Assembly (NCBI GenBank): GCA_963827685.1
Contig: CAWHBU010000006.1
Location: 256,001-320,000, forward strand
Source of the DNA: an uncultured delta proteobacterium
GTDB lineage: Bacteria > Desulfobacterota > BSN033 > UBA1163
DNA length: 64,000 nt
Reading direction: 5' to 3'
Each line of letters begins with the position of its first letter. The first letter of the stretch is position 1. The position numbers and the translations under genes are program-made. A model generated the notes under the pieces. The model was given only the letters and a program-made list of their open reading frames with translations. It did not search any database and had not been told where the DNA came from. Below, one piece after another: positions 36,544 through 61,391 of the stretch.

Positions 36544-38130
36544 TTAAGACTTTGGTTTGCGGTTAGAAACGAACCCCTTCACTTTCCAAAATAGACTCGA
36601 AAGATCACAGAGCCTCCTTCCCCAGAAAGGGGTTGACGATTTTCTGGCCTCTGGATGGATAAAGCAAAAATGGCGGCATCTGATCTTCTGCAATGCCTCT
36701 TCAAATTCCTTCTCGTCTTTCTCCTCCTCGAAATAATCTGGAATCCAATATCCTAAAGAAGAGAAAGCATTCTTGTCTCCAGAATGGTAATGGTAAAAAT
36801 CCATAAAATCATGAAGTGAGGTTTTCACACCATATTCCTCGGGATCAAGATGCCAGGGCGAGCCCGGTTCCATCTCGATGGTAAAAGTGCGAATCCCTTT
36901 CACATTGGAATACCGCCGTCGGATCATCTTTTGGAGTTGAATCGTCTGTTGAACATCTGCTTCCTTCTCAAAGGGCACCCCGAGAGTGAAGAAAAGGTCG
37001 CAGAAGACTCCGTTGGCTTTCATCTGGTCAAGAGTCTTCATCAGAGCATGATTGGAATAGGCATATCCTTTATGAATTTTTCTTCTTCGTTCTGACCCGA
37101 CTTCAGGAGAAAGAGCAATCAATGATTTGGGTCCGGGAAAGGTTGCTTTAAAAGACTTGATAAAATTGATGGTGGGGAGTCCAAAAGATTCGAAGAAACA
37201 TTCCATTCGGATCTTTTCCTCGCGGATGCGGGAGAAAAGATCGAGGAAATATTGAGGCCTCTGGGGATAAGGATCGAAGCAGATATGGAATGTCTCATAA
37301 CCAAAAGAGACGGCTTCTTTAATGGATTGAAGAACACGCTCCACGCTTCGATAGGTCACTTCTTTTCTGCCCGTGATGGTCTCCAGAGAGGAACGACCGC
37401 CGCCGCACCAGGTACATTGAACAGGACATCCTCTCCCTACGGTGAGATGATAGATGGGCGACTTGAGAGAATACATCCAGAAATTCTTCTCCTTGGAAAC
37501 TCCCTTGACATAGAAGGGTTGACCGATATAACGGATGTAGGTGGAATGATTCTTCAATAAAGGGAAGTTCGTGAAGGAGATGTTATTTAACTCTTTCTCC
37601 GAGGCGATGTAGGAAAGAGGATTGATAAGAATTCTCCCTTTCCTTCTCCAGGTGAGATTGGGGATGGAAAAAAGATCTCCCTTCCCTTGCGAGAGTGCGT
37701 TCGCCAATTCCAAAATGGGAACCTCTGCCTCACCGCGAATGATTCCATCGACCCCGTCGAAGTTCTTCATGATCTCTTCATGAAAGAAACTGGCGGTATA
37801 GCCCCCGAGAAGAACGTAAACGGAAGGAAAGGCAGCTTTCACCTTTTTGACTACTTCCATGACATCGTAGCTCTGATGGTGCCAGTGGAGGTCGAGGGCA
37901 ACGATCCGGGGGGCCTTTTCTCTGATATATTCGATGACAGAAAAATGGTGATCTTCAATCCACTCCACTCCCGTGTGTACCACTTCCGTGGAAACGCCAT
38001 GACGTTGGAGAAGGTCGGCCAATCCAAGAAGCCCCATGGGCAGGAAGTTAATCCAGATAAAATGATTGATCGGCCGGTAATAGTTGGTCAGCTTGGGGAC
38101 ATGGAGAAAAATAAAGTCGAGTCTTCCCAT
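36544..38130 (-). CDS. B12-binding domain radical SAM protein
   Basis: PMGLLGLA, GGYTAS, RGEAE, GRGCPVQCTWC. Confidence 0.9.
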   Translation of the reverse strand: MGRLDFIFLHVPKLTNYYRPINHFIWINFLPMGLLGLADLLQRHGVSTEVVHTGVEWIEDHHFSVIEYIREKAPRIVALDLHWHHQSYDVMEVVKKVKAAFPSVYVLLGGYTASFFHEEIMKNFDGVDGIIRGEAEVPILELANALSQGKGDLFSIPNLTWRRKGRILINPLSYIASEKELNNISFTNFPLLKNHSTYIRYIGQPFYVKGVSKEKNFWMYSLKSPIYHLTVGRGCPVQCTWCGGGRSSLETITGRKEVTYRSVERVLQSIKEAVSFGYETFHICFDPYPQRPQYFLDLFSRIREEKIRMECFFESFGLPTINFIKSFKATFPGPKSLIALSPEVGSERRRKIHKGYAYSNHALMKTLDQMKANGVFCDLFFTLGVPFEKEADVQQTIQLQKMIRRRYSNVKGIRTFTIEMEPGSPWHLDPEEYGVKTSLHDFMDFYHYHSGDKNAFSSLGYWIPDYFEEEKDEKEFEEALQKIRCRHFCFIHPEARKSSTPFWGRRLCDLSSLFWKVKGFVSNRKPKS

Positions 38131-38267
38131 CCAGGGAATTGTAAGATGCTCACACGTAATATTTCAACTTCATCCCAAAAATTGGCAAAAGGTATAACGT
38201 CCGCCTGCCGCAGGCAGGAATTTGAAATCTCTAATCTCGGATTTTTGCCCCTATCCCCTTCGCTTTA

Positions 38268-38579
38268 CCCTAATGTTGCATTGAAAAGGCGGTTGGGTGT
38301 ACTTCCAAACTTTTACTAAGCGGTTCTTTACTATTGTTTATGGATAACATGCGATATCACCTAAGGTGGCTTCTGTAACGTGCTCGGAAACATCGTAGTA
38401 AAACACTATAAGGTCCCGCCCTGCCTTCGCCGGAGCGGCTTCGCGCAGGCAGGTGTAAAGATTTGGAGAATCCCCACCATTAGGTGGGGATTCTCCCGGA
38501 AAGGTAAGATTCTTTTGTATCATCTGACGGCCCAGCACGCTCAACCGCCTTTTTAAAACGTCTTTATGCAACGGTAAGG
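38268..38579. mobile_element. Non-autonomous IS derivative (possibly IS1634-like)
   Basis: TIRs CCCTAATGTTGCAT / ATGCAACGGTAAGG; TTTA on both flanks; internal RDLIVFYYDVS peptide; two nested palindromes. Confidence 0.65.
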
Positions 38580-38580
38580 T

Positions 38581-40086
38581 TTATTCTCGATGCAGCTTTT
38601 TAAGGATGATTCTGGCGGCAATGAAGCCCGAAAGACTTGCGCCCACAATGCCGTGAGAGGGTCGGGTATAGTGGCCGACTTGAAAGAGGCCCGGGATAGG
38701 GGTTTGATGGGGAGGTCTTAAATTCCCGACCTGCTGTGGTGTGGAAGCCAAGCCGTACATCGCACCCATTTCATTTCCAGTATATCGCTCTAAGGTCAGC
38801 GGGGTGGCGGCTTCATAAAAGAGGAGATGGTCTCTCAGACCGGGGATTAACTTTGCTTCCAATTGGTGGAGGACTTTCTGGGAAAATTCTTCTTTAATAT
38901 GGCGATACTTTTCAAGATCCCCTCCTCCCCATTTCCCTTGATAATGATAAGGGACATTGATCAGAACACTCAAAATGTGTTGTCCAAGAGGAGCCAACGA
39001 AGGATCCAACGTCGTAGGGATGGATACCATCATGGTCGGGTTCTGGGGAATTTCACCCCTTCTCAATATCCGATCCTCTTCCTCTAAATCGGATAGAAAA
39101 CGGAGATAAGTAAAATAGGGAAGGCCCATTCTTTTGAGATCCAAATCGGTGGCGACATAGAGGATAAAGCAGGAGAGGGAATATTCGAGGCGGCTCCACT
39201 TTTTCGCAAAAAGTTTTCGAAATTCAAAGGGAAGCATTTTGACTGAAACATTCGGATTGATATTGGAGATGACCAATGGGGCTTGAAATATTTCTCCATT
39301 CTTTGTCAGCACCCCTTCGACCCTGCCATCTTTGATCAGAATTTGATGCGCCTCTGTTTGAAGATGAATCTCCCCGCCGGAACGAAGAAAAGCATTGGCC
39401 ATGCCTCCTGAAATTTTTCCCATTCCACCCTTTGGATAAGAAACACCTTCTATCAAGGCTTTATTGATCATGACGGCGAGGAAGAGAAAAGAAAGTCTCG
39501 AAGGAGGCTCAGTGACCGGAAGAGAATGGAGAGCCATCTTGATCTCCCCTCCTCTGAAAAGGTTGTCTAAAATCGTCTGGTGACTGGATCGATGAAACCG
39601 AACCAGATTTCGGAAATAGAAGGGGAAGAAGATCCTCTGGATCGTCGTTATCTCTGAGTATGATTTTATTTCTTCTCCAATTCGTTTGACCATGGAGAGA
39701 TAGGTTTTCAATCCTTTCTCCTCTTGGGGAAAAAGGTCAAAGAGCGCATCGGTATAGGAATGAGATCCACCCGGATGGAGATGAACCTCAAATCCAGGAT
39801 AGATGTTTCGGACGTGATCAATAGGAATAAATTCAATTTCCTGATGTGCACCAATCTCATTAAGGATTTGATGAAATTCTCCGCCCTCGTGACATCCTCC
39901 GACAAAGGCACCTGTCGCATCGAAGGTGACCCCATGCCTTTTGAAGGAGACGACATAACCTCCCACCTGGTCCTCTTTTTCGAGGAGAAGGATCTTTAAT
40001 CCCTTCTTCGCCAAGAGGGCTGCTGCCGTCAATCCTCCCATCCCGGCTCCAATGACGATGGCATCGTATCTCTTAGCACTTCCCAT
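38581..40086 (-). CDS. Phytoene desaturase-family FAD oxidoreductase
   Basis: IGAGMGGL, YPKGGMG, ATPLTLERYTGN..GAMYG. Confidence 0.9.
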   Translation of the reverse strand: MGSAKRYDAIVIGAGMGGLTAAALLAKKGLKILLLEKEDQVGGYVVSFKRHGVTFDATGAFVGGCHEGGEFHQILNEIGAHQEIEFIPIDHVRNIYPGFEVHLHPGGSHSYTDALFDLFPQEEKGLKTYLSMVKRIGEEIKSYSEITTIQRIFFPFYFRNLVRFHRSSHQTILDNLFRGGEIKMALHSLPVTEPPSRLSFLFLAVMINKALIEGVSYPKGGMGKISGGMANAFLRSGGEIHLQTEAHQILIKDGRVEGVLTKNGEIFQAPLVISNINPNVSVKMLPFEFRKLFAKKWSRLEYSLSCFILYVATDLDLKRMGLPYFTYLRFLSDLEEEDRILRRGEIPQNPTMMVSIPTTLDPSLAPLGQHILSVLINVPYHYQGKWGGGDLEKYRHIKEEFSQKVLHQLEAKLIPGLRDHLLFYEAATPLTLERYTGNEMGAMYGLASTPQQVGNLRPPHQTPIPGLFQVGHYTRPSHGIVGASLSGFIAARIILKKLHRE

Positions 40087-41069: not shown

Positions 41070-41810
41070 ATGAAAAATATGAATAGAGTAGCCATCGTCA
41101 CGGGCGGCACGAAAGGTATAGGAGGTGGCATCTGCAGGAGGCTCTTGTCCGGCGGCGTAAACGTTGCTACACTCTATCACCGCGATCAGGAGGCCGCGGA
41201 CCGGCTGAAGAGTTTTGCTCAAGCAGCCGGCACGAGGGCCATTGTCGAATGCATCGATGTTCGAGATTCAGACGCACTCAAAACATTCGTCGCCTCGACT
41301 CAAAATGAGTTCGGTCGTATTGACTACTTGATAAACAACGTTGGTATTGATGTTTTCAAGCCAATCATGGACTTATCCTTTCATGAATGGAAAGAATCCC
41401 AGGACATTATTCTGAATGCTCCACTTGTTCTCTGCCGGCTTGTTGTCCCCATCATGAGACATCAGGCATTTGGCCGAATCATTAATATCGGTGCCTCCTC
41501 CAAAGACTATATGAAAGGGGCGCCGGGTCTTGCAGCTTTTGGTATTCACAAGGGCGCTCTCGCCATATTGACGAAGACGTTGGCGATAGAGGAGATAGCA
41601 AACGGCATAACCGTCAACATGGTCGCCCCTGGCAGCACCCGGAATGCGGGGACATTCTCGGAAGAGGACCGTATCCCGATAGCTTCTATTCCCCTCGGCC
41701 GCAGGGTTGAGATCGACGAGGTGGTTGAGGCTGTCATGTACTTTCTCTCGGAGAAGGCGGCGAGCGTTACGGGTCAATTCCTGGCAGTCAATGGAGGACT
41801 CAGCACGTAA
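41070..41810 (+). CDS. SDR-family oxidoreductase (FabG-like, atypical)
   Basis: TGGTKGIG, NNVG, VAPG, VNGG; YxxxK appears as FGIHK. Confidence 0.9.
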   Translation: MKNMNRVAIVTGGTKGIGGGICRRLLSGGVNVATLYHRDQEAADRLKSFAQAAGTRAIVECIDVRDSDALKTFVASTQNEFGRIDYLINNVGIDVFKPIMDLSFHEWKESQDIILNAPLVLCRLVVPIMRHQAFGRIINIGASSKDYMKGAPGLAAFGIHKGALAILTKTLAIEEIANGITVNMVAPGSTRNAGTFSEEDRIPIASIPLGRRVEIDEVVEAVMYFLSEKAASVTGQFLAVNGGLST

Positions 41811-42308: not shown

Positions 42309-43637
42309 TCAAAAAGAAGGGGGGACCGGGGGGATCAATTTTCTGAAATGCCGCTCTGCTCTTTTGACGGCGGGCCAGAGGCCGAGATTCATCGGCCCGA
42401 AGATGATCAGGCTTCTTTTGATATGAAAGGGATTGAAGATTCTTTTCAACATAGAGGGAAAGGAATAGAAAGACCGATTCACCTTCCAGAATCCTTCCTG
42501 AAGTTCTTCAATAGTCATCCGTTTGGGTTGAAAGACCACGGTAGCCATATCGTATTTCGACCAATCCTCTGTCAAAATTCTTCCTTCCTGCTTTAACCTC
42601 TGGTAGATCCGGGTCCCTGGAAAAGGGGTGAGGATGGGGAGGAAAGCCCCCTCAATCTTGTTCCGTTCGGCAAATTCCAAAAATTCATCGAAGACAGATC
42701 GGTCATCGAAGTCATAGCCAAAGACAAAGGAGGCATAGACTCCGATGCCAGCGTCGTGGAGTTTTTGAATCCCTCTCTCATAGGCTTCAATTCGGTTAAT
42801 CCGCTTTCCCATCAGATTCAAGTTTTCCTCACGAAGGCTTTCAAACCCAATGAAGAGCCCATGGCATCCTGCTCTAGCCATCAGGGAAACCATTTCTTCA
42901 TTCTCTGCGATATGAATCGGCCCTTGGCTCACCCAACGCAACCGATAATGCGAGAGCATGGTGAGAAGCTCTTTGGCATGGGAAAGGCTTCCAACAAGAT
43001 TATCATCCACGAAGAAGATGTAGGCCTTTGACCGTTCCAGAGATTGAATCTCTTTTTCAACTTCGGAGACCGGCCTCATGCGATAAGACTTCCCATGAAG
43101 GGCGGTCACAGAACAAAACTCACAGTCATAAGGACAGCCCCTCGTGGTCTGAATCAAATTGTGAAAGAGGTACCCCTTCGGAGGGAAAAGGTTCCTTCTT
43201 GGGATGGGAAGACGGTTAAGATCTGTTCTCTCCTTTTGGCGATAAAAAGGCTTCGTCGTTCCTTTTTCAGCATCTTCCAATATCTCCATCCAGACCTCAT
43301 CGGCTTCGCCAATGGCCACACTATCGGAATGAGCTTTCGCCTCTTCAGGAAGCCAGGAGGCGTGGATACCCCCGATCACCACCTTTTTCCCTCTCCTACG
43401 AAATTCGTCTGCAATCTCATATCCCCTCGGCGCTAAAGGAGTGATGGCGGTGATAGCGACCAGATCCGCCTCCTGATCGAAGTCGATCTCTGCGAGGCTT
43501 TCATCGATGATGCGGAGTTGATGATGCGAGGGGGTAAGCCCCGCGAGAAGGGAAGTTGAAAGCAAGGGGAATTTGAATGCGATCACGTCCCAGAAGCTGT
43601 TCTTCGGCCACCTGGGAATGACAAAAGAAATCTTCAT
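42309..43637 (-). CDS. B12-binding domain radical SAM protein
   Basis: LAGLTP, GGIHAS, GEAD, TRGCPYDCEFC, FVDDN. Confidence 0.93.
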   Translation of the reverse strand: MKISFVIPRWPKNSFWDVIAFKFPLLSTSLLAGLTPSHHQLRIIDESLAEIDFDQEADLVAITAITPLAPRGYEIADEFRRRGKKVVIGGIHASWLPEEAKAHSDSVAIGEADEVWMEILEDAEKGTTKPFYRQKERTDLNRLPIPRRNLFPPKGYLFHNLIQTTRGCPYDCEFCSVTALHGKSYRMRPVSEVEKEIQSLERSKAYIFFVDDNLVGSLSHAKELLTMLSHYRLRWVSQGPIHIAENEEMVSLMARAGCHGLFIGFESLREENLNLMGKRINRIEAYERGIQKLHDAGIGVYASFVFGYDFDDRSVFDEFLEFAERNKIEGAFLPILTPFPGTRIYQRLKQEGRILTEDWSKYDMATVVFQPKRMTIEELQEGFWKVNRSFYSFPSMLKRIFNPFHIKRSLIIFGPMNLGLWPAVKRAERHFRKLIPPVPPSF

Positions 43638-44248
43638 TCCAACTTCTTTCCTTTTAGGAATTGGGCTAACGGTCTAATCTCCACTCCCTCCGGGGCAACC
43701 CACTGAAAGGCATCCTCCGACAGGGATGGATTGATGGAGATCTCCTTCAATTTCACGTCCACGCGAGTCTCCTTCTCGGGCATCTCGATCCGAATCCGGT
43801 CTGGAAGCTCGCTTCCTTCTGGCTTTTCTGTAGAAATCTTAATGTTTGCCTTCGCGATAAGATCTGCAAATTGTGAAATTTCCCCGGTATAGGCCCGATT
43901 CTGCAAGGGGCTGAAAAGGAGGAATTCGCCACCTCGGTAAAGAACATCGAACACACCCATTCCAAACGGGTGATAGCCCAGGATGCGAATCTTATCCGGT
44001 TTCTCGTAGAGGACGATCCCGTTGAGAAGGAATTTTAACTCCTCACCTTTTCTCACGGTGTCGATACGAATCGAGGCCTTTGCCTGGAGAGATTCTGCAG
44101 AGGAAAAGGCTTCAAGAAGTTTAGCTACGGGATCCTTGACAGCTGGTGCCTCTATGGAGGGAATCCTCACAACTCTCTTGGGACACCCTGAGAGAAAGAG
44201 TACCAGTAGAAAAAGACTCAGAATCACGAACCAGGGTTTTCGGACCAT
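43634..44248 (-). CDS. Lipoprotein, LolA/LolB-like fold probable
   Basis: Lipobox LSGC; YEKPDKIRI; PEGVEI near C-terminus. Confidence 0.65.
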   Translation of the reverse strand: MVRKPWFVILSLFLLVLFLSGCPKRVVRIPSIEAPAVKDPVAKLLEAFSSAESLQAKASIRIDTVRKGEELKFLLNGIVLYEKPDKIRILGYHPFGMGVFDVLYRGGEFLLFSPLQNRAYTGEISQFADLIAKANIKISTEKPEGSELPDRIRIEMPEKETRVDVKLKEISINPSLSEDAFQWVAPEGVEIRPLAQFLKGKKLE

Positions 44249-44252
44249 TTCG

Positions 44253-45740
44253 CTATTCTCCTCTCTCAAGCCTGTTCAAAACCGCTTCTGCAGTCAATTC
44301 CCCAGAGGCAACCACTCCAGCAATCCCTCCGCCAGGAGATGTCCAATGTCCGGTAAGATAAAGATTTGAGATGGGAGTGGTGCGAGAAAGACGATAGATC
44401 CCGGATTGCCTCGGTATCTGGGCCCACCCATAGGCAGCGCCCCATCGATTGCCCGTCCACCTCTCGATGGTTTGAGGAGTGTTCTCCACCTTGACCAAAA
44501 TCCGTTTCTTTAGGTTTGGGATGAGAGCCGAGGCTTGGGTGATCAGGCGCTGGGAGAGCTCATCTTTCACCTTTTGATCCCAATTCGGGCTGAGGTGATA
44601 GGAGGTTTTGTAACTCAGACAGAGCGTACTTTGCCCCTTTGGCGCATGGGATGGATTGACCTTTGACGGAGCAAGAAGATAAAAAGGTGCATCATCCGGT
44701 ATCAGATTCTCATAGAGAGCGTGATATTCTTTTTGGAGTTGATCGTCGAAAAAGACCTCATGGTTTGAAACGGAAAGCTCATCCAATTCCCCTTCAATGC
44801 CTAAATAAAGGATATAATAAGAAAGGGAAGGTTTCATTCCCTTCAATTTTGATCGGAAGCCACTTGGAAGGTGGTCCTCTTTGATCAGGTCTGAAAATGT
44901 GTGATGGGCGTCGATATTCGAAATGACAACCTTCCCTTTCATCTCTTGGCCATCCTTTAACCGTACGCCGATTGCCTTCTTGCCCTCGATGAGAATTTGA
45001 TCAACCTCATGGCCGATCAAGATTCGCCCTCCTATCTTCTCAAGAGTCTCTCCTATTCTGAGGGGAAGTTGTTCCACCCTTCCTTCGATACAGGAAACTC
45101 CGTAGTTGAAGTAAGACATTTCGATCCCGGTCATGCCCACCACAGAGATCTCCTCAGGAGGAAGCAGCGCATAAGAGCTCCGTATCGAGAGGAGGGTTTT
45201 CAAAAAAGGATCGGAAATCCATTCATTGAGGAGTTCGCCATAAGTCTTATCCTTGTATCGGGAGAGAAAAGGATATTGGGATGAAAAGGAAGAAGGCTCA
45301 AACCAATTGAGAGAGGATCGAACATTTGAAAACTCTTCAAAGATTTTTCTCAGGACGGCATAGACCCCTTCAATTCCCTTTCTCTCATTTGGAAAAAGAG
45401 ATGAGAGGTTCTCAATGTGAGTTCCGAGATGGGAGGATTGGCTCACCTTCCTATCCGGGAAGTGATATTCTCTTGCGGGTTCGAGAGGGATGAAGTGGAT
45501 TTGAGGCAGCAGGTCTAATGCTTTCAAAATTTTCCATACTCTCCCCCCTTCTTGGCATTCCCCAATCGATTGTACAGCGAGGTCAAAAGAAAACCCATCT
45601 TTTTGGAAGGAGCTACAGCAGCCACCCACCTTTTGATTCTTTTCGATGATCAGGACCTTCAGCCCTTTTTTCGCAAGAAGACAGCCGCAGGTGAGCCCTG
45701 CCATTCCTGCTCCAATGATGATGACATCCGTATCAGACAT
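44253..45740 (-). CDS. Phytoene desaturase-family FAD oxidoreductase
   Basis: IGAGMAGL, TPQTIERWTGN..GAAYG, GHWTSPGGG. Confidence 0.9.
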   Translation of the reverse strand: MSDTDVIIIGAGMAGLTCGCLLAKKGLKVLIIEKNQKVGGCCSSFQKDGFSFDLAVQSIGECQEGGRVWKILKALDLLPQIHFIPLEPAREYHFPDRKVSQSSHLGTHIENLSSLFPNERKGIEGVYAVLRKIFEEFSNVRSSLNWFEPSSFSSQYPFLSRYKDKTYGELLNEWISDPFLKTLLSIRSSYALLPPEEISVVGMTGIEMSYFNYGVSCIEGRVEQLPLRIGETLEKIGGRILIGHEVDQILIEGKKAIGVRLKDGQEMKGKVVISNIDAHHTFSDLIKEDHLPSGFRSKLKGMKPSLSYYILYLGIEGELDELSVSNHEVFFDDQLQKEYHALYENLIPDDAPFYLLAPSKVNPSHAPKGQSTLCLSYKTSYHLSPNWDQKVKDELSQRLITQASALIPNLKKRILVKVENTPQTIERWTGNRWGAAYGWAQIPRQSGIYRLSRTTPISNLYLTGHWTSPGGGIAGVVASGELTAEAVLNRLERGE

Positions 45741-46006
45741 AATTTGAAAGTATAACACAGCACTTCGCCGTTCGTCGAATCCGCTCCTTTTTACAAATCA
45801 CGAAGTCGCTGAAAAGATTTGATCGTTTTACAAAAAAGGGGAAAGTGGTTGCTGCAATAAAGCCGAGGTAGGCGGAGTCTTCACCAAGTTTAAGAATCCT
45901 GTACACACGATTGATCAATTGATTGAGGAAATAAGGAGAGGAAATGGTCAAATCGCCCTGAAAAATAGCGATTGCGTGAGATTGGATTTAAATCGCTTTT
46001 TCCAAA

Positions 46007-47234: not shown

Positions 47235-47242
47235 CAGGATGA

Positions 47243-50981: not shown

Positions 50982-50997
50982 GATTTCCTCCACAAAA

Positions 50998-52093: not shown

Positions 52094-52240
52094 GTTTTAA
52101 TTTTCTTAACTTGCTAGCGTTAAAACAATAATAGTATTATATAGTTATGTCACTTCCGCTGTAGTTTTTACCCTCTCTTCCTGATGCATAGAAAAAATGG
52201 AGTATTCCCTTTTCATGGAGCTGCTGGTATAGTAAAGGGA

Positions 52241-52585: not shown

Positions 52586-52994
52586 GAAAAAAACTTTCAA
52601 AGCACATTTTCCTTTTTGAATCATCATTGATGATATCGGTCCCGGGAGAAACAATCGGTCTTTTGTGATTGATTATTGCTTCATGGAATAACATTCTGCC
52701 TAAATCCTAATCGTCGGTAAGACAATTGTGTGGATATTACTTCCTAAACTCCACAGACGGGCATTTGGGCAAAGCGTCCTTGATTTCAATAATCGCTAAA
52801 TCTTGAGACTATCCAAAACTGTGGACGTGCAGGTGGGATTGGTTAGGCTGGACATTTTTCTATGGGGGGTAACTTTTTGGACTTACCCACGCTTCATTTC
52901 AAGATGAAGAATAACTTTTAAACCACAGCGAAATATTCGATCCACCATTCGAGCAACCATTCAATTGCGGATTTCATATTGCGAATTGCGGATT

Positions 52995-54251
52995 TTACTT
53001 ATTACTATTCCCTTCGCGATATGTTTTAAACCATAAAGAAATATTAGATCCACCATTGGAGGCACTATTGAGGATAGCTGAACGCATCTCTTTTTTCTTC
53101 GATTGACCGACAACCACATTCAAATCACATTGTGGATCGAGATGCTCTGTTCCGATCGTCGGAGGAATTATCCCGTGATAAAGACTTAACGCCAATCCAC
53201 AAGCTCTGATCCCTCCCGAGCCGTCGAACTCCCCGAGCGCTGATTTAAGGCTGCTGACAGAAATCTCCTTCGCTCTTTCTCCAAAGATCTTTTTGATCGC
53301 AAGGGTCTCCACGCGATCCAGATCAGGAGTGGAGTTAGCGGCTGCTGAAATATAATCAACGGTGTCGAGTTCTTGGGCTGCCAGAGACATTGCCCTGGCA
53401 ATTGAATCTCCCTTAAGATCATACCGAAGAAGTCCATCTGTGCTTCCTGCAAGCCCAACACCAGCCATCTCAGCATACACTCTCGCTCCCCTCTTCTTCG
53501 CATGTTCCAATGTCTCTAAGACGACAATTCCGCTTCCTTCTCCCAGGACAATCCCATTCCGATCCTGATCAAAGGGTTTCATCCCTTCTGCGCCTTTTCC
53601 TCTTCCCGGTGACAGAGCGCCAAGCATCGAATAGACATGATAGAGAGGCTCGCTCAACTCATCGCCTCCTCCTGCGAAGACGACATCTGCCCTTCCCTCT
53701 TTCAACAGATGATAAGCAAACGTCATGGCCATCTCTGTGGAAGATTCTTTATGAGAGAAGGTGATGTTCACTCCCTTGATGCCATATTCGATGGCACAGT
53801 GGCTCGTGATGGCATTGGGCACAGCAGTTTGAAAGAGGAGGGGGGCTGCTCCCAGCGGACCCTCTTTTAGAAGGGAACGAAAGAACTGGTCTACGGTATC
53901 AGAACTCCCCAAACCCGTACCAATTGAAATCCCGATTCGGCTGGAATCCTCCTCCTTTAGGTTGAGACCGGAATCATCTATCCCCAATCGGACGGCTGAG
54001 ACAACGATTTTCCCGATCCGATCCATCCTTCTAAGATTAGCCGGCTTGATAAAAGCCTTAAAATCGATCTCCGAAAGTTGGGCTCCCAACCGAGAGCGGT
54101 AAGAACTCACGTCAATCCCCTGAATCGGCTTGATCCCGGAGATTCCTTGAAGGCAGTTCTCCCAGAAGGCCTCTTTACCAGCACCAATTGAGGAAACAAT
54201 TCCCAAACCTGTAATGACAACGCAATGATCCTTCGGCGAGTACACTTCCAT
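52995..54251 (-). CDS. Ketosynthase homolog lacking the catalytic triad (chain-length-factor-like)
   Basis: VVITGLG, PFD..RNG..LGEG; Cys>Glu, His>Ala, His>Glu by eye alignment. Confidence 0.88.
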   Translation of the reverse strand: MEVYSPKDHCVVITGLGIVSSIGAGKEAFWENCLQGISGIKPIQGIDVSSYRSRLGAQLSEIDFKAFIKPANLRRMDRIGKIVVSAVRLGIDDSGLNLKEEDSSRIGISIGTGLGSSDTVDQFFRSLLKEGPLGAAPLLFQTAVPNAITSHCAIEYGIKGVNITFSHKESSTEMAMTFAYHLLKEGRADVVFAGGGDELSEPLYHVYSMLGALSPGRGKGAEGMKPFDQDRNGIVLGEGSGIVVLETLEHAKKRGARVYAEMAGVGLAGSTDGLLRYDLKGDSIARAMSLAAQELDTVDYISAAANSTPDLDRVETLAIKKIFGERAKEISVSSLKSALGEFDGSGGIRACGLALSLYHGIIPPTIGTEHLDPQCDLNVVVGQSKKKEMRSAILNSASNGGSNISLWFKTYREGNSNK

Positions 54252-54307: not shown

Positions 54308-55528
54308 TTACTCCGAACTAAATTTCTTAAACACCAAGCACACATTGTTGCCCCCGAAGGCGAACGAATTTGAGAGGGCCACCCGAACATCCTTCTTAAT
54401 GGATTGATTAGGTGTATAATTCAGATCACAAAGGGGATCTGGTACTTCATAGTGAATGGTCGGAGGAATGATCCCAGTCTTCAGGGTCATGACGGTCGCC
54501 ACAGCCTCGATACCACCCGCAGAGCCAAGGCAATGTCCTATCATGGATTTGATTCCGCTGATGGGAATCTCTTTTGCCCTTTCTCCAAAAACCCGTTTGA
54601 TCCCCCGTGTCTCGGCAATGTCATTGAAAGGCGTGGCCGTGCCATGGGCATTGATGGTATCGACCTCCTCTGCGGAAACCCCCGCATGAGCTAAAGCAAG
54701 GCGGATCACCCTTTCTACACCCTCCCCGTTGGGCTCCGGTGCTGTAAGATGATAGGCATCGGCGCAGATCCCATATCCTAAAAACTCCGTATGAATCGGG
54801 ACTTCTCTCTTCAATGCATGGCCCAGTTCCTCAAGGATGAGGATGCCAGCTCCTTCACCGATGACCAGACCCTGTCTCCTCTTGTCGAAGGGTTTGCAAC
54901 TTTCAGGATCAACCAGCTTCAGACTGCTGAATCCGCTATAGGAGACCTCGCAAAGAGAATCACTTCCACCCGTCACCATCACATCCGCCAAACCCATTTG
55001 AATCATCTCATAGGCTACGCCAATAGAGGCGGAACTTGAAGAACAGACTGTCGCGGTGGTCGTTCGGGGTCCTTTCAAGCCTGATTCAATGGCGATGTGG
55101 TCCGTCGTAGTGGCGAGGGAATAAGAGATAAGAAGGGACGGAGAGGACTTCTTCGTTCCTTGATAATAGTCTCTAAAATATTTTTCGACTGAGAGAATGC
55201 CGCCGGAGCCTGCCCCCAATACGACCCCTACCCTTTCCTTATTATGCGAATCCTGGTTAAGACGGGCAGATTTCCACGCCTCTCTGAAGGCAATCAGGCC
55301 GAATTGATCACATCGGGAGAGGCGTCGAGTCTCCTTTTTTGAAAAATGGGCCCCAGGGTCCAAATGGGAAACCTCTGCAGCAATCTTCGTCCGGTAGGCA
55401 GAGGGATCAAAGACCGTAATCTCCTTTGTCCCATCTCTTCCCTCGATGAGGGAGTTCCAGAACTCAGGGAGGTCATTTCCCACGGCACTAACCACACCCA
55501 GACCTGTAATCACAACCCTTTTCTTCAT
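54308..55528 (-). CDS. fabF: beta-ketoacyl-ACP synthase, FabF-like, intact triad
   Basis: TVCSS, NAHGTAT, KSMIGH, SNSFAFGG. Confidence 0.93.
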   Translation of the reverse strand: MKKRVVITGLGVVSAVGNDLPEFWNSLIEGRDGTKEITVFDPSAYRTKIAAEVSHLDPGAHFSKKETRRLSRCDQFGLIAFREAWKSARLNQDSHNKERVGVVLGAGSGGILSVEKYFRDYYQGTKKSSPSLLISYSLATTTDHIAIESGLKGPRTTTATVCSSSSASIGVAYEMIQMGLADVMVTGGSDSLCEVSYSGFSSLKLVDPESCKPFDKRRQGLVIGEGAGILILEELGHALKREVPIHTEFLGYGICADAYHLTAPEPNGEGVERVIRLALAHAGVSAEEVDTINAHGTATPFNDIAETRGIKRVFGERAKEIPISGIKSMIGHCLGSAGGIEAVATVMTLKTGIIPPTIHYEVPDPLCDLNYTPNQSIKKDVRVALSNSFAFGGNNVCLVFKKFSSE

Positions 55529-55555
55529 TTGACCTCAGTTAATTAAGCACGTGTC

Positions 55556-55910
55556 CGTGCCTGCACGCTGAAGCCTGCCTCCGCCGGAGCGGCTTCGCGC
55601 AGGCAGGCGTTTCGGCGCGCAAGCGTGTCCGTTTTTCGTGTCCGGAAACCATTAGAATTCTATTTCCAAATTACCTAGAAAATAACTCTCAAATCCCCCA
55701 ACCCCCCTTTTGCTAAAGGGGGGCGAGGGGGGATTAGCAATTTTCATGGTTCGTGCCTGCCTGCCGGTAGGCAGGGGTGACGAACCCGTCATGAAAGATT
55801 GTTCAGAAAATAAAACGCCCCAAAAATCTTCCTCCCCCCTTGCGGGGGAGGATCAAGGTGGGGGGTAGTCCATTTTGTTCACCCCCACCCACCCCCGGGA
55901 GGGGGACCAT
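55556..55910. repeat. Cluster of several palindromic repeat families, partly nested
   Basis: CCTGCACGC..(55560-55623), AATCCCCC..GGGGGATT, TTTCATG..CATGAAA, CTCCCCCCTTGCGGGGGAG. Confidence 0.85.
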
Positions 55911-55943
55911 TCAAATTTCTATCATTCGGATGCAACGTATCCA

Positions 55944-56804
55944 TCACGATATATTACTTCTGAATGCTAAAATGGTTTTGCTGACTCCGGGAAGAAGGAT
56001 TTTCTTCAGGCTGAGATAGAAAAGCGCTTCCGCGAGGCTTCCAAAAAGAACGGAGGCTGTTCGCTTTTCCAAATCACTGGGGAGCGTGTATCCACCGATC
56101 AGGTGTTGGCCTTTTCCAAAACCAATTCTCTCTAAACACCCCTGAATCATCTTCGGCGAGAAATCGGAGAGATGAGCAGGTAGATCGTATAAACGATTCT
56201 TAACGCCGAAGAAATGGAGTAGACTCTTGATGGGGGTGGTATGAGGATACCTCAGCAGGAGGAGTCCTCCTGGTTTGAGAATTCGGTAGCATTCCCTGAG
56301 AAAGGTCATCGGGTGGGGGAGGTGCTCGATGACATAGAATCCAGTGACTGCATCGAAATGATTATCGGGAAAACCCACCTTCTCCAATGGTCCAGGATGG
56401 ACTGTCAGTCCTAAAACATTCCTTGCATAGTCTAAGGCTTTTTGGGAAATCTCAATGCCCACTGCCTCCCATCCCCTGTTCTTCATCTCGGCAATAAAAA
56501 ATCCAAAACCAGCCCCTACATCCAAGAGCCGTCCATTTCTTCTATATCGCTTGAGTAGATCTGCCGCCCGATGGAAGACGGGCTTCATCATCTTCTCCCA
56601 TGATCCAATCGAGGCTTCTTCTTCCGGAAGATACTGTTGATAGAAATGATGAAGAGATTCAACCGTGGGCCGAGGATTGAGAAAGATGAATTGACATGAG
56701 GGACACCGGACCATTTGGAAGGAACCCTCCAGGTGTAGAGGGTCTCCTCTTGACTTTTGGCAGATGGGACAGTTGACCTCCTCCATTTCAAAATCCATGT
56801 TCAA
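55944..56804 (-). CDS. Class I SAM methyltransferase with N-terminal CxxC..CxxC
   Basis: CPIC, CPSC, LLDVGAGFG, VIEHL, LKPGG. Confidence 0.92.
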   Translation of the reverse strand: MNMDFEMEEVNCPICQKSRGDPLHLEGSFQMVRCPSCQFIFLNPRPTVESLHHFYQQYLPEEEASIGSWEKMMKPVFHRAADLLKRYRRNGRLLDVGAGFGFFIAEMKNRGWEAVGIEISQKALDYARNVLGLTVHPGPLEKVGFPDNHFDAVTGFYVIEHLPHPMTFLRECYRILKPGGLLLLRYPHTTPIKSLLHFFGVKNRLYDLPAHLSDFSPKMIQGCLERIGFGKGQHLIGGYTLPSDLEKRTASVLFGSLAEALFYLSLKKILLPGVSKTILAFRSNIS

Positions 56805-57002: not shown

Positions 57003-57722
57003 TTACTTTGGTAATCCCCCTTTGCCTCCTCTTATTGAAGGAGGATTAGGATTAGGCCTCACCGATTCGATCCACATCTCTACGGTTCGTGTGTAAAGCT
57101 TCCAACGCTCCAATCTCGATTGTTCTAAGAAATCCCGACATTCCTTGATGGTATAGGAAGACTGGATCGATTCTAAAAAACCTCTCGTCGCTTTAGGATG
57201 TCTTCCAAAAAAAGCTTTCCAAAGAAGATTAAAAATTCCGATGAACACAATAGAGGCATCCCGGTGAAAATCAACTATAACAAACGCTCCCCCTTCCTTC
57301 AAGGATCGGGCAACCTCGTTGAAGAAGTCGACAGGGCGGTCTAAATGGTGGAGAGTGGTAATGCAGAGAACAAGATCGAGAGAATGATCTTCAACGGGGA
57401 GGGAGTAGGCCGAACCCACCTCAAATTCGATTTTGTCGGCCAATCTTTTCTCCTTCGCATTTCTTCTCGCAATTTCGACCATCACTGGAGAGAGATCAAT
57501 ACCTTTAAATCGAACCCCCGGAATGGCCTTTGACAAAAAAATGGGAAAGGTTCCGGGACCTGTTCCCACATCAATGGCCCTTCCCTTCTCAATCCCCTTG
57601 GCCAATACCCGTTTGAGAACCCTCTGGCACGGGAACCTCCCATATCGCTTGGCCATAAGGTTGTAATATTCCGCCAGCTCCTGGTCTTCAATAATACCAG
57701 ACTCTGTGATTCGCTCTTTCAT
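57003..57722 (-). CDS. Class I SAM methyltransferase
   Basis: IDVGTGPG, GIDLS, TLHHL, LKEGG. Confidence 0.92.
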   Translation of the reverse strand: MKERITESGIIEDQELAEYYNLMAKRYGRFPCQRVLKRVLAKGIEKGRAIDVGTGPGTFPIFLSKAIPGVRFKGIDLSPVMVEIARRNAKEKRLADKIEFEVGSAYSLPVEDHSLDLVLCITTLHHLDRPVDFFNEVARSLKEGGAFVIVDFHRDASIVFIGIFNLLWKAFFGRHPKATRGFLESIQSSYTIKECRDFLEQSRLERWKLYTRTVEMWIESVRPNPNPPSIRGGKGGLPK

Positions 57723-58165
57723 TCTCCTTCCGCCAGCCTCTTTGCCAAAACAAGCGTTCCCTCAGCTATTATTTCTCCTTCCACTCTAGCCAGAACCTTC
57801 ACCTTGGCCAAATCAGAAAATATATGTAGCACTTCTGCCTCAATGTTGACTTGATCTCCCGGTATAACTCTTCTTTTCAATCGAAACTCTTCAACTCTCG
57901 CTAAGACAGGTATCCTTTCTCCTCCATCTTCAAATGAGGATTGAAAGGCCAGTCCCCCGGTTTGCGCCATTGCTTCGAGAATCAATACTCCCGGCATGAC
58001 AGGGTCTTTTAGGAAATGGCCTGAAAAATGCGGTTCATCAATGCTGACATTTTTCAGGGCAATCGCCTTCTTTCCATTTTCGATCTCGAGAATCCGATCG
58101 ATCATCCGGAAAGGAAAGGCATGGGGAAGTCTCAACAAGATTTCATTGAGGTCGGTCGTCTTCAT
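57719..58165 (-). CDS. fabZ: 3-hydroxyacyl-ACP dehydratase
   Basis: LPHAFPF..IDRI, GHF...PVMPGVLILEAMAQ. Confidence 0.93.
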   Translation of the reverse strand: MKTTDLNEILLRLPHAFPFRMIDRILEIENGKKAIALKNVSIDEPHFSGHFLKDPVMPGVLILEAMAQTGGLAFQSSFEDGGERIPVLARVEEFRLKRRVIPGDQVNIEAEVLHIFSDLAKVKVLARVEGEIIAEGTLVLAKRLAEGE

Positions 58166-58214
58166 TTTAATCCGTAATTGACATAGATAAAATTTCAAAT
58201 ACCAAAATCCAAAT

Positions 58215-58324
58215 GTGAAGCTCCCCGCCCACAGGGCGGGGCTTCCCGGCAAGGTATTTTCATTTTATATTGTGCCCCTTGCCCCCGCCTACAAGGCGGG
58301 GCTTGTGGGGCACGTTCCGGCCAA
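58215..58324. mobile_element. Second copy of the two-hairpin element, inside a heptamer palindrome
   Basis: Shares ends and hairpins with 40296-40431. Confidence 0.7.
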
Positions 58325-58469
58325 ATCAATGCCAAATGATTAAATATCAGAGTTATTCTTTTGAAATTTGACCCTTCGATTCCATTTGAACTTGATTCAC
58401 CTTCGGTTCATCACTTCGTGCGGGCTTTGGCTTTGGTATTTGAAAACATATCCTTTTGTTCACAAATGC

Positions 58470-58949
58470 CTAAAAGAGAGATAGAATTTTAAAGATTCCT
58501 TTAGCGATCCCCATGATAATAAAAATACCTATGAAGGAGCCTGTCATTAAAAGAACGGTTCCTTCAATCTTTCCCTTTTTAAGAAAGAAACTAACGATGC
58601 TCGCTGAAAGGATTCCAAAACCCCGAATGGGAAGAGCAGAAAGCAGGATGAGTCCCACATTCCCCAGGGACATCACTTTTCTTAAGATCGGCCTTTCATC
58701 CAATCGGGTCAAGACATGATCCGTTTTTTTCTTCAACCATCGCACAGGGAAGAAACTCCTACTCGAATGCTCCAAGATGATTCCATAGACTGGGATTTGA
58801 ACATAGTCATAAGCCAGAGCCAAAGGAAAGTAGAGGGAAACAGGCATTTGATTGAAGATGGCAAAAAGCACAGAGAAAGATCGCCCCAGGGTGAAGTGGA
58901 TAAGGGTGAAGAGCGAAATCAATTTCCAATAGCCGGCTATCCACTCCAT
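58470..58949 (-). CDS. Small multi-TM membrane protein (small multidrug export-like)
   Basis: About 4 hydrophobic helices; overlaps upstream KS gene. Confidence 0.7.
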   Translation of the reverse strand: MEWIAGYWKLISLFTLIHFTLGRSFSVLFAIFNQMPVSLYFPLALAYDYVQIPVYGIILEHSSRSFFPVRWLKKKTDHVLTRLDERPILRKVMSLGNVGLILLSALPIRGFGILSASIVSFFLKKGKIEGTVLLMTGSFIGIFIIMGIAKGIFKILSLF

Positions 58950-60169
58950 TCAACACCTACCAGGATAGACGAAAAGCAATTCTCTGGTGAAATTCCTAAA
59001 TGGAGGATCGTCTGAACCTCTCGATTCAATCTTTGATTGACCACATAATGGAGATCACAGATCGGATCCGGGTTCAGATAATTAATGGTCGGTGAAATGA
59101 AGTCATTTCCCATGGAAAGTACATTGGCCACCATTCTCATCCCGCCGGATGCAATGGCTTCTCCCACCATCGACTTGATCGAACTAACAGGAATCTGAAG
59201 GTACTCGGTTGGAAATGTCTTCTTAACCCCTTTGGCCTCCAGGGCATCCAATACTTTGGATGAATTCCCAGCCCCGCTGAGATAATCGACGGAAGCACCT
59301 TTTTTCCCCTTAAGTGCCAGTTTCATGGACCGATTCAAATCCTCTGACCCGTCGCCTTTAGATGATCTCCCGACCAAACTATAACCGAGAATATAACCGT
59401 AAATCCTTACCCCCCTCGATCGGGCATGCTGTTCATTTTCAACCACCAATAATCCAGCGCCCTCTCCCAATACCAATCCATTTCGCATTTTATCGTAAGG
59501 CCGGGACTTTTCTCCATGTCTCTGATCTGTGGCTAACAGGTGAAGTTCTGAAAACCCGCGGAACAGAATCTCGCTTAGTTCATCCACTCCACCTGTGAGG
59601 ATAAGGTCAGCCTTTCCTTTTCGAAGCTGATCACAGGCGAAACATATAGCGGCCTCTGCTGTGCAGAAGGATTGAACCAATGTCGAATTGACCCCCTGGA
59701 TTCCAAGTTCAATGGAGACATAACTGGAGGGGGCATTAGGAACAGTATTGGGAAAGAGCATGGGGTTTAAGTCCAAGAAACCTTTCAGGACCTGGCCTTG
59801 ATGAAATTCCTCTGAGCTCGAGAGACCACAGAAACCAGAGCCAAAGACGACTCCGACCCTTGAGCTATTCTCCTGAGTCACAGTGAACTGAGCATCGCCT
59901 AAAGCCAATTTCGACGCTGCGATAGCGAACTGACTCGCCCGATCAAGGCGCCGGATCTTACTCGCGGGTATAAAATCTTTGGGATGGAAGGATCGGATCA
60001 CTCCTCCCTTTTTAGAACGGGAGAAACGCGTATCGAATTCTTTAATCTCCTCAATGCCGGATTTCCCGTTCTTTAAGGATGAAAGGAATTCCTCCTTCCC
60101 GATTCCAATCGGAGAGACGATTCCTATTCCGGTAACACAAATACGATCTGATGCCTTCGGCTCACTCAT
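58937..60169 (-). CDS. Second ketosynthase homolog lacking the catalytic triad
   Basis: VTGIG, PYD..RNG..LGEG; Cys>Phe (a Cys sits at +1), His>Ala, His>Glu. Confidence 0.88.
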
Positions 60170-61391
60170 AGACCTTTTCTTCGTCTCCCTCGAGGTCCAT
60201 CGCATCTTTTTCTACATCCCTTGCATCACTCTCTCTTTTTAACACCTCCCTGTAGAATTCATGTTGAATAAGAAGACTCATGATTTCATTCGTTCCGGTC
60301 CAGATCATCTGCAATCTCGCATCGCGGAAGAAACGCTCGATGGGATAGACATTCGTATATCCGATTCCACCCATCACCTGCATCGAATGGTTGACGACCT
60401 CCCAGAGCATTTCTGTAGAGTTCTTTTTTGCCTCGGAGACCATCCGCCTCGAATCAAAACCTTCATCGACATGCCTTGCCGTCACATAGACCAGACTCCG
60501 AGCGGCATCGAGTTTTGTAATCGAATCGGCCACCCTAAAACTGACTGCTTCAAATTTTCGGATCGTCTCTCCAAAGGCCTTCCTCCGGTCGCTGTATCGT
60601 GTAGCAATCTCCAGACAGCACCGCGCCATGCCAAGGGCTCCGGCTGCAGTGGTCAATCGCTCAGGGATCATCATCCGGTCGAAGACCAGCGAACCTCCAT
60701 TCAACGGCCCAACGAGATTTTTTGCCGGCACCTTGGTATCGCGAAAATAGAGACGGCCTGTCCCTCCTCCGCGTGAACCCAGGAGTCCGTAAACATGCTT
60801 GACTTCTACACCCATGTCCCTTTCGACAATGAAACAGGAAATGGATTGGTGGGGATGAGCCTCTGGTGCCGTTTTTGCATAGACCAGAAAATAATCCGCC
60901 CCCTCCGCACCCACCACAAAACGCTTCTGGCCATTGAGGATGTAATGATTCCCATCTTTCTTGGCAAGGGTGGTGGCGCCGAAAAAGTCGGATCCTCCCC
61001 GGGGTTCAGTGAGAGCCTCTGCGCAGCAGAGCTTTCCCTCAAGGGTGGGCTTCAAATATTTTGCCTTCTGCTCCGGCGTACCAAAATGATGGATCGCCTC
61101 GCCGCAGATGCTCACTAAAGAGTAGAGGCAGCTCATTCCTGATCCAAGGACACCAATTTCCTCAATGGCCGCTACCTCCCCTGTCCACTTCATCCCCCTG
61201 CCTCCCCATTCCTTGGAGAAGCGAAGGCCGAGGAGATTCTGTGCTGCCAGACTTTCAATATACTCCTTCGGATACTTCACCTGATCAGCGTCCATGGCTC
61301 GAATCAGTGAACTCGGCACCTTTTCTCTGACGAACCTTCTGACCTCCTCTTGCAACTTCTTCTCTTCCTCTGTCAAAAGAAAATCATACAT
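60162..61391 (-). CDS. Acyl-CoA dehydrogenase
   Basis: [35 protein letters not shown]. Confidence 0.95.

Follow-up and report, generated by a model that had tools for sequence, protein, structure and literature searches.

A cluster of genes for lipid biosynthesis lies on a 64,000-nucleotide stretch of DNA, here called the window, from an uncultured Syntrophales-like member of the Thermodesulfobacteriota that is represented by a metagenome-assembled genome and is not an anammox bacterium. We conclude that the window probably holds the larger part of a multi-locus, acyl carrier protein (ACP)-dependent pathway for a specialised lipid, of the 'ladderane-type' kind that joins type II fatty acid synthesis (FASII) to radical S-adenosylmethionine (SAM) enzymes. 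Gene identities were taken from the open reading frame (ORF) listing and from Pfam and NCBIfam scans of the window (Table 1), and all 13 genes named in a preliminary description of this DNA were recovered in place on the minus strand. They include an active FabF-type ketosynthase (KS), two KS homologues that have lost the catalytic triad and resemble chain-length factors (CLFs), a FabZ-type dehydratase, two flavoproteins of the CrtI family, two vitamin B12-binding radical SAM (rSAM) enzymes and a lipoprotein. The preliminary description had interpreted this set as a dispersed ladderane- or aryl-polyene-like cluster; its account of the enzyme mix, the unity of the two halves, a KS distinct from the housekeeping enzyme and export of the product all gained support, but the hallmarks of aryl-polyene clusters were missing from the window, and its polyene chain tailored by radical methylation or cyclisation stands as a proposal. 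The host assembly (G000) comprises 5.2 Mb in 14 contigs and is 94.5% complete with 8% contamination; below, C2, C3, C4 and C6 are its contigs, G numbers denote genomes and L numbers fetched loci. Counts given for 41 genomes refer to G000 and 40 relatives, which by their kinship are non-independent samples, and these counts are descriptive only.

In the window, 7,237 nucleotides separate the half of the cluster that contains the KS genes from a trio encoding CrtI_B, the lipoprotein and rSAM_B. Comparison with related genomes shows that the KS half and the trio are one cluster, split by inserted genes in the host genus. A pattern scan for CrtI_B in species-representative genomes returned 60 loci, of which 41 (L020–L060) contain an orthologue with 53–92% identity. 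Upstream DNA extends for at least 8 kb in 20 loci, and 16 of these have an orthologue of dead KS 2 upstream of CrtI_B and on its strand. The gap between the two genes in relatives ranges from 72 to 6,294 nucleotides, with direct adjacency (<150 nucleotides) in 7 loci; the gap in the window is the widest of all. Where at least 2.2 kb of downstream DNA is available (27 loci), the lipoprotein and rSAM_B come right after CrtI_B in 26. Contiguous versions of 11–12 genes occur in other genera (L042, L027, L021 and L052), with the order ACAD (acyl-CoA dehydrogenase-like flavoprotein), dead KS 1, membrane protein, FabZ, two methyltransferases, LolA, KS_act, dead KS 2, CrtI_B, lipoprotein and rSAM_B. 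At the junction, loci of the same genus have only the HD-domain and hyp133 genes and loci of other genera have none of the block genes, and the DsrE2-to-FadL block (window 46007–52585) was absent from every related locus compared. A CrtI homologue and a B12 rSAM gene are therefore clustered with a KS pair and FabZ, 7.2 kb apart in the window and contiguous in relatives. These data settle the question, raised in the preliminary description, of whether the halves adjoin in relatives, and run counter to the possibility that they never co-occur.

Table 1 Features of the window cluster and associated loci. Positions are those of the window unless a contig is named.
Feature	Position	Strand	Description
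Window (G000:C6:256001-320000)	256,001-320,000 of contig CAWHBU010000006.1, assembly GCA_963827685.1	forward	
ACAD-like flavoprotein	60162-61391	-	Three ACAD domains in Pfam; best NCBIfam match AcrC, 258 bits, under cut-off
Dead KS 1 (KS-like, CLF-like)	58937-60205	-	Pfam/NCBIfam; Cys/His/His replaced by Phe/Ala/Glu
Small polytopic membrane protein	58470-58949	-	PF06695 (Sm_multidrug_ex), Pfam
FabZ-type 3-hydroxyacyl-ACP dehydratase	57719-58252	-	PF07977; NF000582 147.5 bits, cut-off 113
MT_239	57003-57722	-	Class-I SAM methyltransferase, UbiE/BioC-like, 239 aa; Pfam/NCBIfam
MT_286	55944-56804	-	Class-I SAM methyltransferase, 286 aa, two N-terminal CxxC pairs; Pfam/NCBIfam
Intergenic gap	55529-55943	.	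Site of LolA gene (about 214 aa) in 9 of 17 related loci
KS_act	54308-55528	-	FabF-type KS, Cys-His-His triad intact; Pfam/NCBIfam and alignment
Dead KS 2 (KS-like, CLF-like)	52995-54251	-	Cys/His/His replaced by Glu/Ala/Glu; start 56 nt downstream of KS_act
Interrupting block, outside the system	45759-52994	.	hyp133, CsoR-like, DsrE2-like, TusA, DsrM/DsrK-like, FadL-type porin, HD-domain protein
CrtI_B	44253-45758	-	CrtI/phytoene-desaturase-family FAD enzyme; crtI_fam 193 bits, under cut-off of 238
Lol-fold lipoprotein	43634-44269	-	Lipobox LSGC; structure model; overlaps both neighbour genes
rSAM_B	42309-43637	-	B12-binding radical SAM, CX3CX2C motif, DUF4070 tail; Pfam/NCBIfam
CrtI_A	38581-40086	-	CrtI-family FAD enzyme, 30-32% identical to CrtI_B; Pfam/NCBIfam
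rSAM_A	36544-38130	-	B12-binding radical SAM; nearest family TIGR04190
ORF overlap, ACAD/dead KS 1			44 nt
ORF overlap, dead KS 1/PF06695 membrane protein			13 nt
ORF overlap, FabZ/MT_239			4 nt
ORF overlap, CrtI_B/lipoprotein			17 nt
ORF overlap, lipoprotein/rSAM_B			4 nt
Second locus (L088)	C6:420.9-433 kb (420900-433000), about 100 kb past window end		Methyltransferase, FabG, FabD-like, thioesterase, ACP, LPLAT, five B12 rSAMs

The window cluster has no ACP, ketoreductase, malonyl transferase or acyltransferase, and a second locus on the same contig (L088) encodes exactly these functions. A PF00550 search of the 5.2-Mb assembly found three sites, none within C6:256001–320000, in agreement with the earlier statement that the window has no ACP; the ACP whose whereabouts the preliminary description had left to be located lies at C6:430078–430299, about 110 kb past the window end. 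The second locus reads methyltransferase, B12 rSAM, FabG, TIGR04072 rSAM, two B12 rSAMs, a REP-associated transposase, thioesterase, FabD-like transferase, ACP, LPLAT-type acyltransferase and a further B12 rSAM. Its FabG scores over the TIGR01830 cut-off, its ACP is of the NF006617 type (74 bits, cut-off 70; best Protein Data Bank (PDB) match 9ls6_A, 61 bits), and its TIGR04072 ('rSAM_ladder_B12') member at C6:423806–425149 reaches 392 bits against a cut-off of 360. The dedicated ACP missing from the window cluster is present in two distant relatives of the cluster, L102 and L105. Two genomes join parts of the two loci physically: in G036, of a different family, the second locus runs straight into KS, dead KS 1, membrane protein and FabZ; in G002, of the same genus (C17:536700–544400, L113), PpiD, ACAD, dead KS 1 and membrane protein run not into FabZ but into rSAM513, TIGR04072 and FabG, and the window-type locus and the second locus have therefore recombined within one genus. 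Gene content agrees, with TIGR04072 over its cut-off in 19 of the 21 genomes that have a dead KS 2 orthologue versus 3 of the 20 that do not (G013, G022 and G034). Of the two remaining dead KS 2 genomes, G007 has a TIGR04072 match of 351.8 bits and G005 (83% complete) only a 303-bit paralogue; in G025, which has no dead KS 2 orthologue, a 328-bit match is cut by a contig end. Our literature search found no paper that mentions TIGR04072 or rSAM_ladder_B12. As a separate observation, the transposase gene, of the REP-associated tyrosine type, sits in the middle of the second locus (L088:14145–14669). The B12 rSAM complement of G000 is unusually large: across the genome, the TIGR04072 model matches 33 times at E ≤ 0.001. 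The window itself encodes another B12-binding radical SAM protein of 558 aa (12655–14331, minus strand) unlinked to the cluster.

The KS genes combine one conserved and two eroded active sites, as the preliminary description had recognized. Catalytic residues were read from a multiple alignment (A2) and from HMMER alignments to Bacillus subtilis FabF and PDB chain 9s5h_C. KS_act retains Cys-His-His, dead KS 1 has Phe/Ala/Glu at the triad columns with a Cys one residue past the catalytic column, and dead KS 2 has Glu/Ala/Glu; KS_act and dead KS 2, only 56 nucleotides apart, thus place an active KS beside a triad-less homologue. The shifted Cys of dead KS 1 is also kept in the G036 orthologue ('SFC' and 'SYC'). 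Chain 9s5h_C has Val/Asn/Glu at the same columns, which is the pattern given for the anammox protein amxFabFmut in the available text of a preprint (Granatino 2026), and on the strength of this match we take 9s5h to be the anammox amxFabF2/amxFabFmut heterodimer. Dead KS 2 orthologues (at least 59% identity) occur in 21 of 41 genomes, three of them as fragments only, and the dead KS 1 orthologue of G036 adjoins a second active KS.

KS_act is also distinct from the housekeeping enzyme. Among the nine KS-type genes of G000, the housekeeping FabF (C2:608539–609771) lies beside an ACP (C2:608278–608478) and a FabG-like short-chain dehydrogenase/reductase (SDR) at C2:607.6–609.8 kb, and KS_act is 44% identical to it. 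In a quick maximum-likelihood tree of 26 rows (9 from G000 and 17 from related loci, leaving out four matches with stops in the extracted stretch and one of 270 residues, below the 300-residue cut), KS_act falls in a 10-row clade (SH-aLRT 99) with the second-locus-linked KS and cluster KS proteins of distant Desulfobacterota, and the housekeeping FabF belongs to a distinct clade of five rows (SH-aLRT 96); long branches outside both clades carry the dead KS proteins. Grouping of the cluster KS with housekeeping FabF, which the preliminary description had named as an outcome that would speak against it, was thus not seen.

The lipoprotein of the trio gave only sub-threshold Pfam matches (DUF2092, E 0.002; DUF4292, E 0.0095) and did not match the Pfam LolA model. 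Its AlphaFold model (9-row alignment; pLDDT 83.6, pTM 0.75) yielded 59 Foldseek matches at E ≤ 0.001, the best LolA at E 4.8e-11 with probability 1.00 and LolB (1iwm) at E 7.6e-6, with TM scores of 0.42–0.57. The modelled fold and the lipoprotein signal together assign the protein to the LolA/LolB superfamily, in keeping with its earlier label of Lol-like lipoprotein, and because it combines a Lol fold with the lipobox LSGC it is predicted to be a LolB-like anchored carrier. It belongs to a narrow family: among 1.84 billion representatives, a profile search found 593 matches with E ≤ 0.001, of which 58 reached E ≤ 1e-10 and 10 reached E ≤ 1e-30. Where both flanks are visible (17 loci), a true LolA gene (PF03548, E 5e-17 to 4e-15) lies between MT_286 and KS_act in 9. 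The lipoprotein in the window and the LolA gene in relatives back the export step proposed in the preliminary description, with the outer membrane as the presumed destination.

Downstream of the trio, CrtI_A and rSAM_A form a related module that is more loosely attached, because rSAM_A also occurs without dead KS 2 and its partner varies among loci. Orthologues of rSAM_A (at least 56% identity, cut fragments included) are present in 26 of 41 genomes. The CrtI_A–rSAM_A pair lies downstream of the trio in L022 and L060, as in the window; CrtI_A precedes rSAM_A in four of seven fetched loci (L106, L107, L111 and L112), and L110 ends at the gene. In two genera without the KS cluster, a lipoprotein homologue with 59–60% identity stands beside rSAM_A (L108:8308–10519 and L109:5160–9810); in L109 a 2.5-kb gap separates genes of this region. 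Although TIGR04190 (B12_SAM_Ta0216) is its nearest family, rSAM_A scores 211.6 bits against a cut-off of 500, and the true member in G000 is at C3:1137485–1138996 (664.6 bits). A homologue search with rSAM_B gave 4,938 matches at E ≤ 1e-30 among the 8,000 scored; identity is 69% or more for each of the 120 listed, which bear generic names only, and no anammox sequence is among the matches listed. Elsewhere in G000, a 44% paralogue of rSAM_A (C3:452609–454147, L093) precedes genes for an HMGL-like protein, the large and small subunits of aconitase and a LuxE acyl-protein synthetase; the HMGL-like gene is of the homocitrate/isopropylmalate-synthase type. A B12 rSAM is here paired with a chain-elongation-type set.

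Loci elsewhere in the phylum repeat these gene kinds in matching order, and related gene kinds are clustered in an Omnitrophota locus; the window cluster is therefore a rearranged member of a cluster family spread through Desulfobacterota and beyond. In an even phylum sample of 401 genomes, CrtI_B orthologues (at least 47% identity) occur in 18, from families f1, f2, f15 and f27. We fetched 12 neighbourhoods from this sample: four from f15, one from f27 and seven with distant CrtI homologues (32–38% identity). The f27 locus encodes LolA, KS, dead KS and CrtI. Three of the seven distant loci (L099, L100 and L102), and also L098, keep the order KS, dead KS, CrtI and B12 rSAM. Around this core, L099, L100 and L102 carry homologues of the membrane protein, both methyltransferases and the second-locus rSAMs, L102 adding an ACP homologue; homologues of the PF06695 membrane protein are 32–50% identical in the related clusters L092, L099 and L102. 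L105 encodes a TIGR04072-like rSAM, FabG, ACP and FabZ, followed by MT_286 and CrtI. Proteins of L099, L100, L102 and L105 share 27–56% identity with those of the window and second locus. L101, L103 and L104 have little else beside the distant CrtI homologue. An Omnitrophota locus (L061) encodes dead KS, SDR, FabZ, KS and CrtI.

These observations suggest a pathway in which the pairing of KS with CLF, the sequence of steps, the reactions of the CrtI and B12 rSAM enzymes and the outer-membrane destination are our inferences. By analogy to amxFabF2/amxFabFmut, each dead KS would pair with an active KS as a KS/CLF-like heterodimer, KS_act with dead KS 2 and the KS at C4:104 kb with dead KS 1. Together with FabG of the second locus and FabZ of the cluster, the KS pairs would build an acyl or enoyl chain of set length on the dedicated ACP, and the two SAM methyltransferases and the ACAD-like flavoprotein may alter early intermediates. 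CrtI-like flavoproteins could then introduce, shift or remove double bonds, and the B12 radical SAM enzymes could methylate or cyclise unactivated carbons. The LPLAT protein would transfer the finished acyl group to a lipid acceptor, and LolA (in relatives) and the LolB-like lipoprotein would ferry the product across the periplasm to the outer membrane.

Several observations weigh against this pathway. It is drawn from genes, in an uncultured host. The window has no LolA gene, and tblastn at E ≤ 1e-6 found no remnant of one in the 55529–55943 gap. The window rSAM enzymes fall far below the TIGR04072 cut-off of 360 bits (rSAM_B 75.9, rSAM_A 38.5). The ACAD may be a housekeeping enzyme that simply abuts the cluster, its membership being uncertain because it is far more conserved than its neighbours (87–96% identity across genera versus 54–92%) and is missing from the G036 version of the arrangement. 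No dead KS 2 lies upstream of CrtI_B in 4 of 20 loci (L028, L035, L051 and L056), and the four loci of f15, a family with small genomes, contain CrtI_B alone or the trio with no KS genes within 12–19 kb; the trio can therefore stand apart from KS genes. The trio and the CrtI_A–rSAM_A pair might thus constitute a self-standing module that remodels ordinary or membrane-spanning lipids by mid-chain methylation, desaturation or ring formation, with KS genes as frequent but dispensable neighbours. This possibility, which we consider unlikely, draws on those loci (in L094–L096 the trio stands without KS over 15.7–19 kb), on rSAM_A orthologues in four genomes that lack dead KS 2 (G013, G020, G022 and G023), on lipoprotein homologues (59–60%) beside rSAM_A in G020 and G023, and on the proximity of rSAM_A to TIGR04190, a family named for an archaeal protein. 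It would also fit the B12 rSAM enzymes known so far to modify lipids, which, in the available text of a 2026 review, act on finished membrane lipids. However, trio-only status was judged from locus DNA, and among the 20 loci whose flank is long enough, 16 have the trio downstream of the KS pair and on its strand. The KS, dead KS, CrtI and rSAM order moreover survives at 30–42% protein identity in distant lineages, which favours a shared pathway over chance adjacency. That conservation of order across families of the phylum bears equally on a reading of the halves as unrelated neighbours, an extra FASII set next to carotenoid or hopanoid tailoring genes. The 7.2 kb of unrelated genes between them in the window would suit such a reading, as would the best named matches of the CrtI-like and rSAM genes, which are carotenoid and hopanoid enzymes (all under cut-offs); yet synteny in relatives contradicts it, the halves being directly adjacent in 7 loci and keeping their order in 16 of 20, and the window scans showed no synthase for carotenoids or hopanoids, making it very improbable.

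Two further explanations concern the product. Aryl-polyene clusters carry an enzyme that activates the aryl starter or an ammonia lyase, paired ACPs, a ketoreductase, an MMPL exporter and a set of glycosyl- and acyltransferases, and to our knowledge no CrtI-like or B12 rSAM genes. An outer-membrane-anchored pigment of the aryl-polyene or flexirubin type, made by a KS/CLF pair like that of type II polyketide synthases (PKS), could account for the KS and CLF-like dead KS, FabZ, methyltransferase, LolA and Lol-fold lipoprotein, for the LPLAT, thioesterase and FabG of the second locus (FabG scores 246 bits against the flexirubin reductase FlxB, under the cut-off of 340) and for an ACP of the NF006617 type. 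We nevertheless regard it as improbable: none of the listed hallmarks is in the window, second-locus scans of L088 revealed no starter-activating enzyme, MMPL protein or glycosyltransferase, KS_act is under the cut-offs of every specialised KS model in NCBIfam, and the seven B12 rSAM and two CrtI-like genes in the two loci are not known from such clusters. Production of true ladderane lipids outside anammox bacteria would be consistent with gene kinds that match anammox Cluster I and with a second-locus rSAM over the TIGR04072 equivalog cut-off. Against it, no ladderanes were found in Desulfotalea psychrophila despite its syntenic clusters (Rattray 2009, available text), ladderanes are reported from anammox bacteria alone in the accessible parts of the papers cited here, and the window proteins are not specially close to solved anammox proteins. 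The three window KS proteins score 210–372 bits overall against the 9s5h chains, with 371.9 bits for KS_act against 9s5h_B and 370.5 against B. subtilis FabF, 258.5 and 244.9 for dead KS 2 against 9s5h B and C and 261.5 against 1j3n, and 216.5 for dead KS 1 against 9s5h_C and 231.8 against 4ls6; FabZ scores 86–90 bits against amxFabZ (8ayc 89.6, 8ayd 87.5) and 115 against canonical FabZ. By these scores the KS proteins appear about as close to 9s5h as to canonical FabF and FabZ appears nearer the canonical enzyme, a point that also tempers the multi-locus pathway preferred here; true ladderanes in this host are highly improbable.

Some proteins of the window deserve separate mention. The ACAD has Thr at the column where the catalytic Glu canonically stands ('iwTGTnei' versus 'iyEGTnei' of 1ukw), and isovaleryl-CoA dehydrogenases are among its top PDB matches. 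In isovaleryl-CoA dehydrogenase the catalytic Glu is on a different helix, and we provisionally take the Glu of 'pERl' in the window protein to occupy this place. The top PDB matches of MT_239 and MT_286 are generic class-I methyltransferases (44–53 bits), and none is attributable to anammox AmxMT1 (PMC9821293), whose PDB code was not seen in the accessible text of that source, so that the two may still be related to AmxMT1. An SDR gene at 41070–41810 (plus strand) was considered as the missing ketoreductase and rejected, with no orthologue beside rSAM_B in any related locus and only 29–36% matches elsewhere. Outside the cluster, the window encodes a myo-inositol-1-phosphate synthase-like protein (24164–25288, plus strand), which might concern inositol lipid head groups, and a deoxyhypusine-synthase-like protein (22955–24004, minus strand). 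At 8000–12500 the G+C content is 0.60–0.61 versus about 0.46 elsewhere; this stretch carries MacA/HlyD-like, MacB-like permease and TolC-like genes, with only short ORFs (108–126 aa) for the ABC ATPase between them, and may represent acquired DNA, frameshifted genes or a binning or assembly artefact; contamination is estimated at 8%. An Rfam scan of the whole window gave no match at gathering score. Sequencing runs matching the lineage are of DNA from freshwater-sediment, wetland, peat and soil metagenomes, a single one containing more than half of the words, and no RNA run is among the runs listed as matching.

A bolder form of the multi-locus pathway, which we put forward tentatively and as possible but doubtful, is that the window and second locus form a complete non-anammox counterpart of the ladderane gene set with a Lol carrier pair, through which wetland and peat Syntrophales place a new radical-SAM-tailored acyl lipid, multiply methyl-branched and/or carbocyclic, in the outer membrane. 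If so, the shared core of KS/CLF, CrtI and B12 rSAM would perform the same carbon-skeleton chemistry that starts ladderane formation, and many natural variants for heterologous expression would open a second, comparative entry to the question of how anammox bacteria build ladderanes, which has been open for more than 20 years. Apart from this bolder form, the recurrence of these gene kinds and their order in Syntrophales-like bacteria and other Desulfobacterota points to the core as a wider lipid-tailoring device, and its presence alone is no ladderane marker in metagenomes. The modular shuffling of the loci shows which genes travel together and thereby suggests a minimal gene set for cloning, and the Lol-fold carriers hint at the outer membrane, narrowing where to seek the product. 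Biomarker studies of peat and wetland may find in this abundant lineage of anaerobes, which has seven B12 radical SAM genes linked to lipids, a candidate origin for branched or cyclic orphan lipids.

Compared with known systems, the cluster resembles type II PKS KS/CLF and aryl-polyene clusters in its active KS beside an inactive homologue, its Lol-type carriers and its methyltransferase, but differs in having no aromatic-starter genes and many B12 rSAM and CrtI-like genes. Classical CLFs carry Gln at the catalytic Cys column, where the window dead KS proteins carry Glu or Phe. As described in the accessible text of Rattray 2009, the FASII clusters of Kuenenia contain radical SAM enzymes, methyltransferases, two 'phytoene dehydrogenases' and FabF paralogues without active-site residues, and syntenic clusters occur in Desulfotalea, Geobacter and Pelobacter; likewise, the available text of a Cariaco Basin study reports antiSMASH 'ladderane' biosynthetic gene clusters without assigned function in Desulfobacterota, Omnitrophota and other phyla. 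By description, the window set shares with these clusters the phylum, divergent FabF paralogues, SAM and radical SAM enzymes, a 'phytoene dehydrogenase' and a membrane protein. Unlike them, it occupies three or more sites of the genome (the window, C6:421–433 kb and the KS at C4:104 kb), has been split further by inserted genes and is accompanied by LolA/LolB-like carriers.

Anammox Cluster I (kustE3603–3608), which the available literature calls 'unique to' or 'encountered exclusively in' ladderane producers, encodes amxACP, amxFabZ, amxFabF2, amxFabFmut, a phytoene-dehydrogenase homologue and a B12 radical SAM enzyme; amxFabF2 pairs with amxFabFmut in a KS/CLF-like heterodimer with a preference for short chains (Granatino 2026 bioRxiv, accessible text), and amxFabZ has been characterised (Dietl 2023, accessible text). 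The window cluster likewise has FabZ, an active KS beside a triad-less KS, a CrtI flavoprotein and a B12 radical SAM enzyme on one strand, and both of its dead KS proteins share with 9s5h_C a Glu at the second His column; the likeness of its CrtI and rSAM proteins to kustE3607/3608 is one of gene kind. The enzyme mix thus resembles both the anammox ladderane candidates and the deltaproteobacterial clusters, as the preliminary description had proposed, at the level of gene kinds given in the accessible parts of Granatino 2026 and Rattray 2009. Unlike Cluster I, it keeps its ACP in the second locus and has two dead KS proteins and not one, with Phe or Glu rather than Val/Thr at the Cys column and Ala, not Asn, at the first His column, and it adds an ACAD, two small methyltransferases, a PF06695 membrane protein and Lol-fold carriers. 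Because the parts of Rattray 2009 and the Cariaco study available report such clusters without a product, ladderane-type clusters outside anammox bacteria are known in kind since 2009 with product unassigned; new here are the two CLF-like dead KS proteins, the Lol-fold carriers and the second CrtI/rSAM pair.

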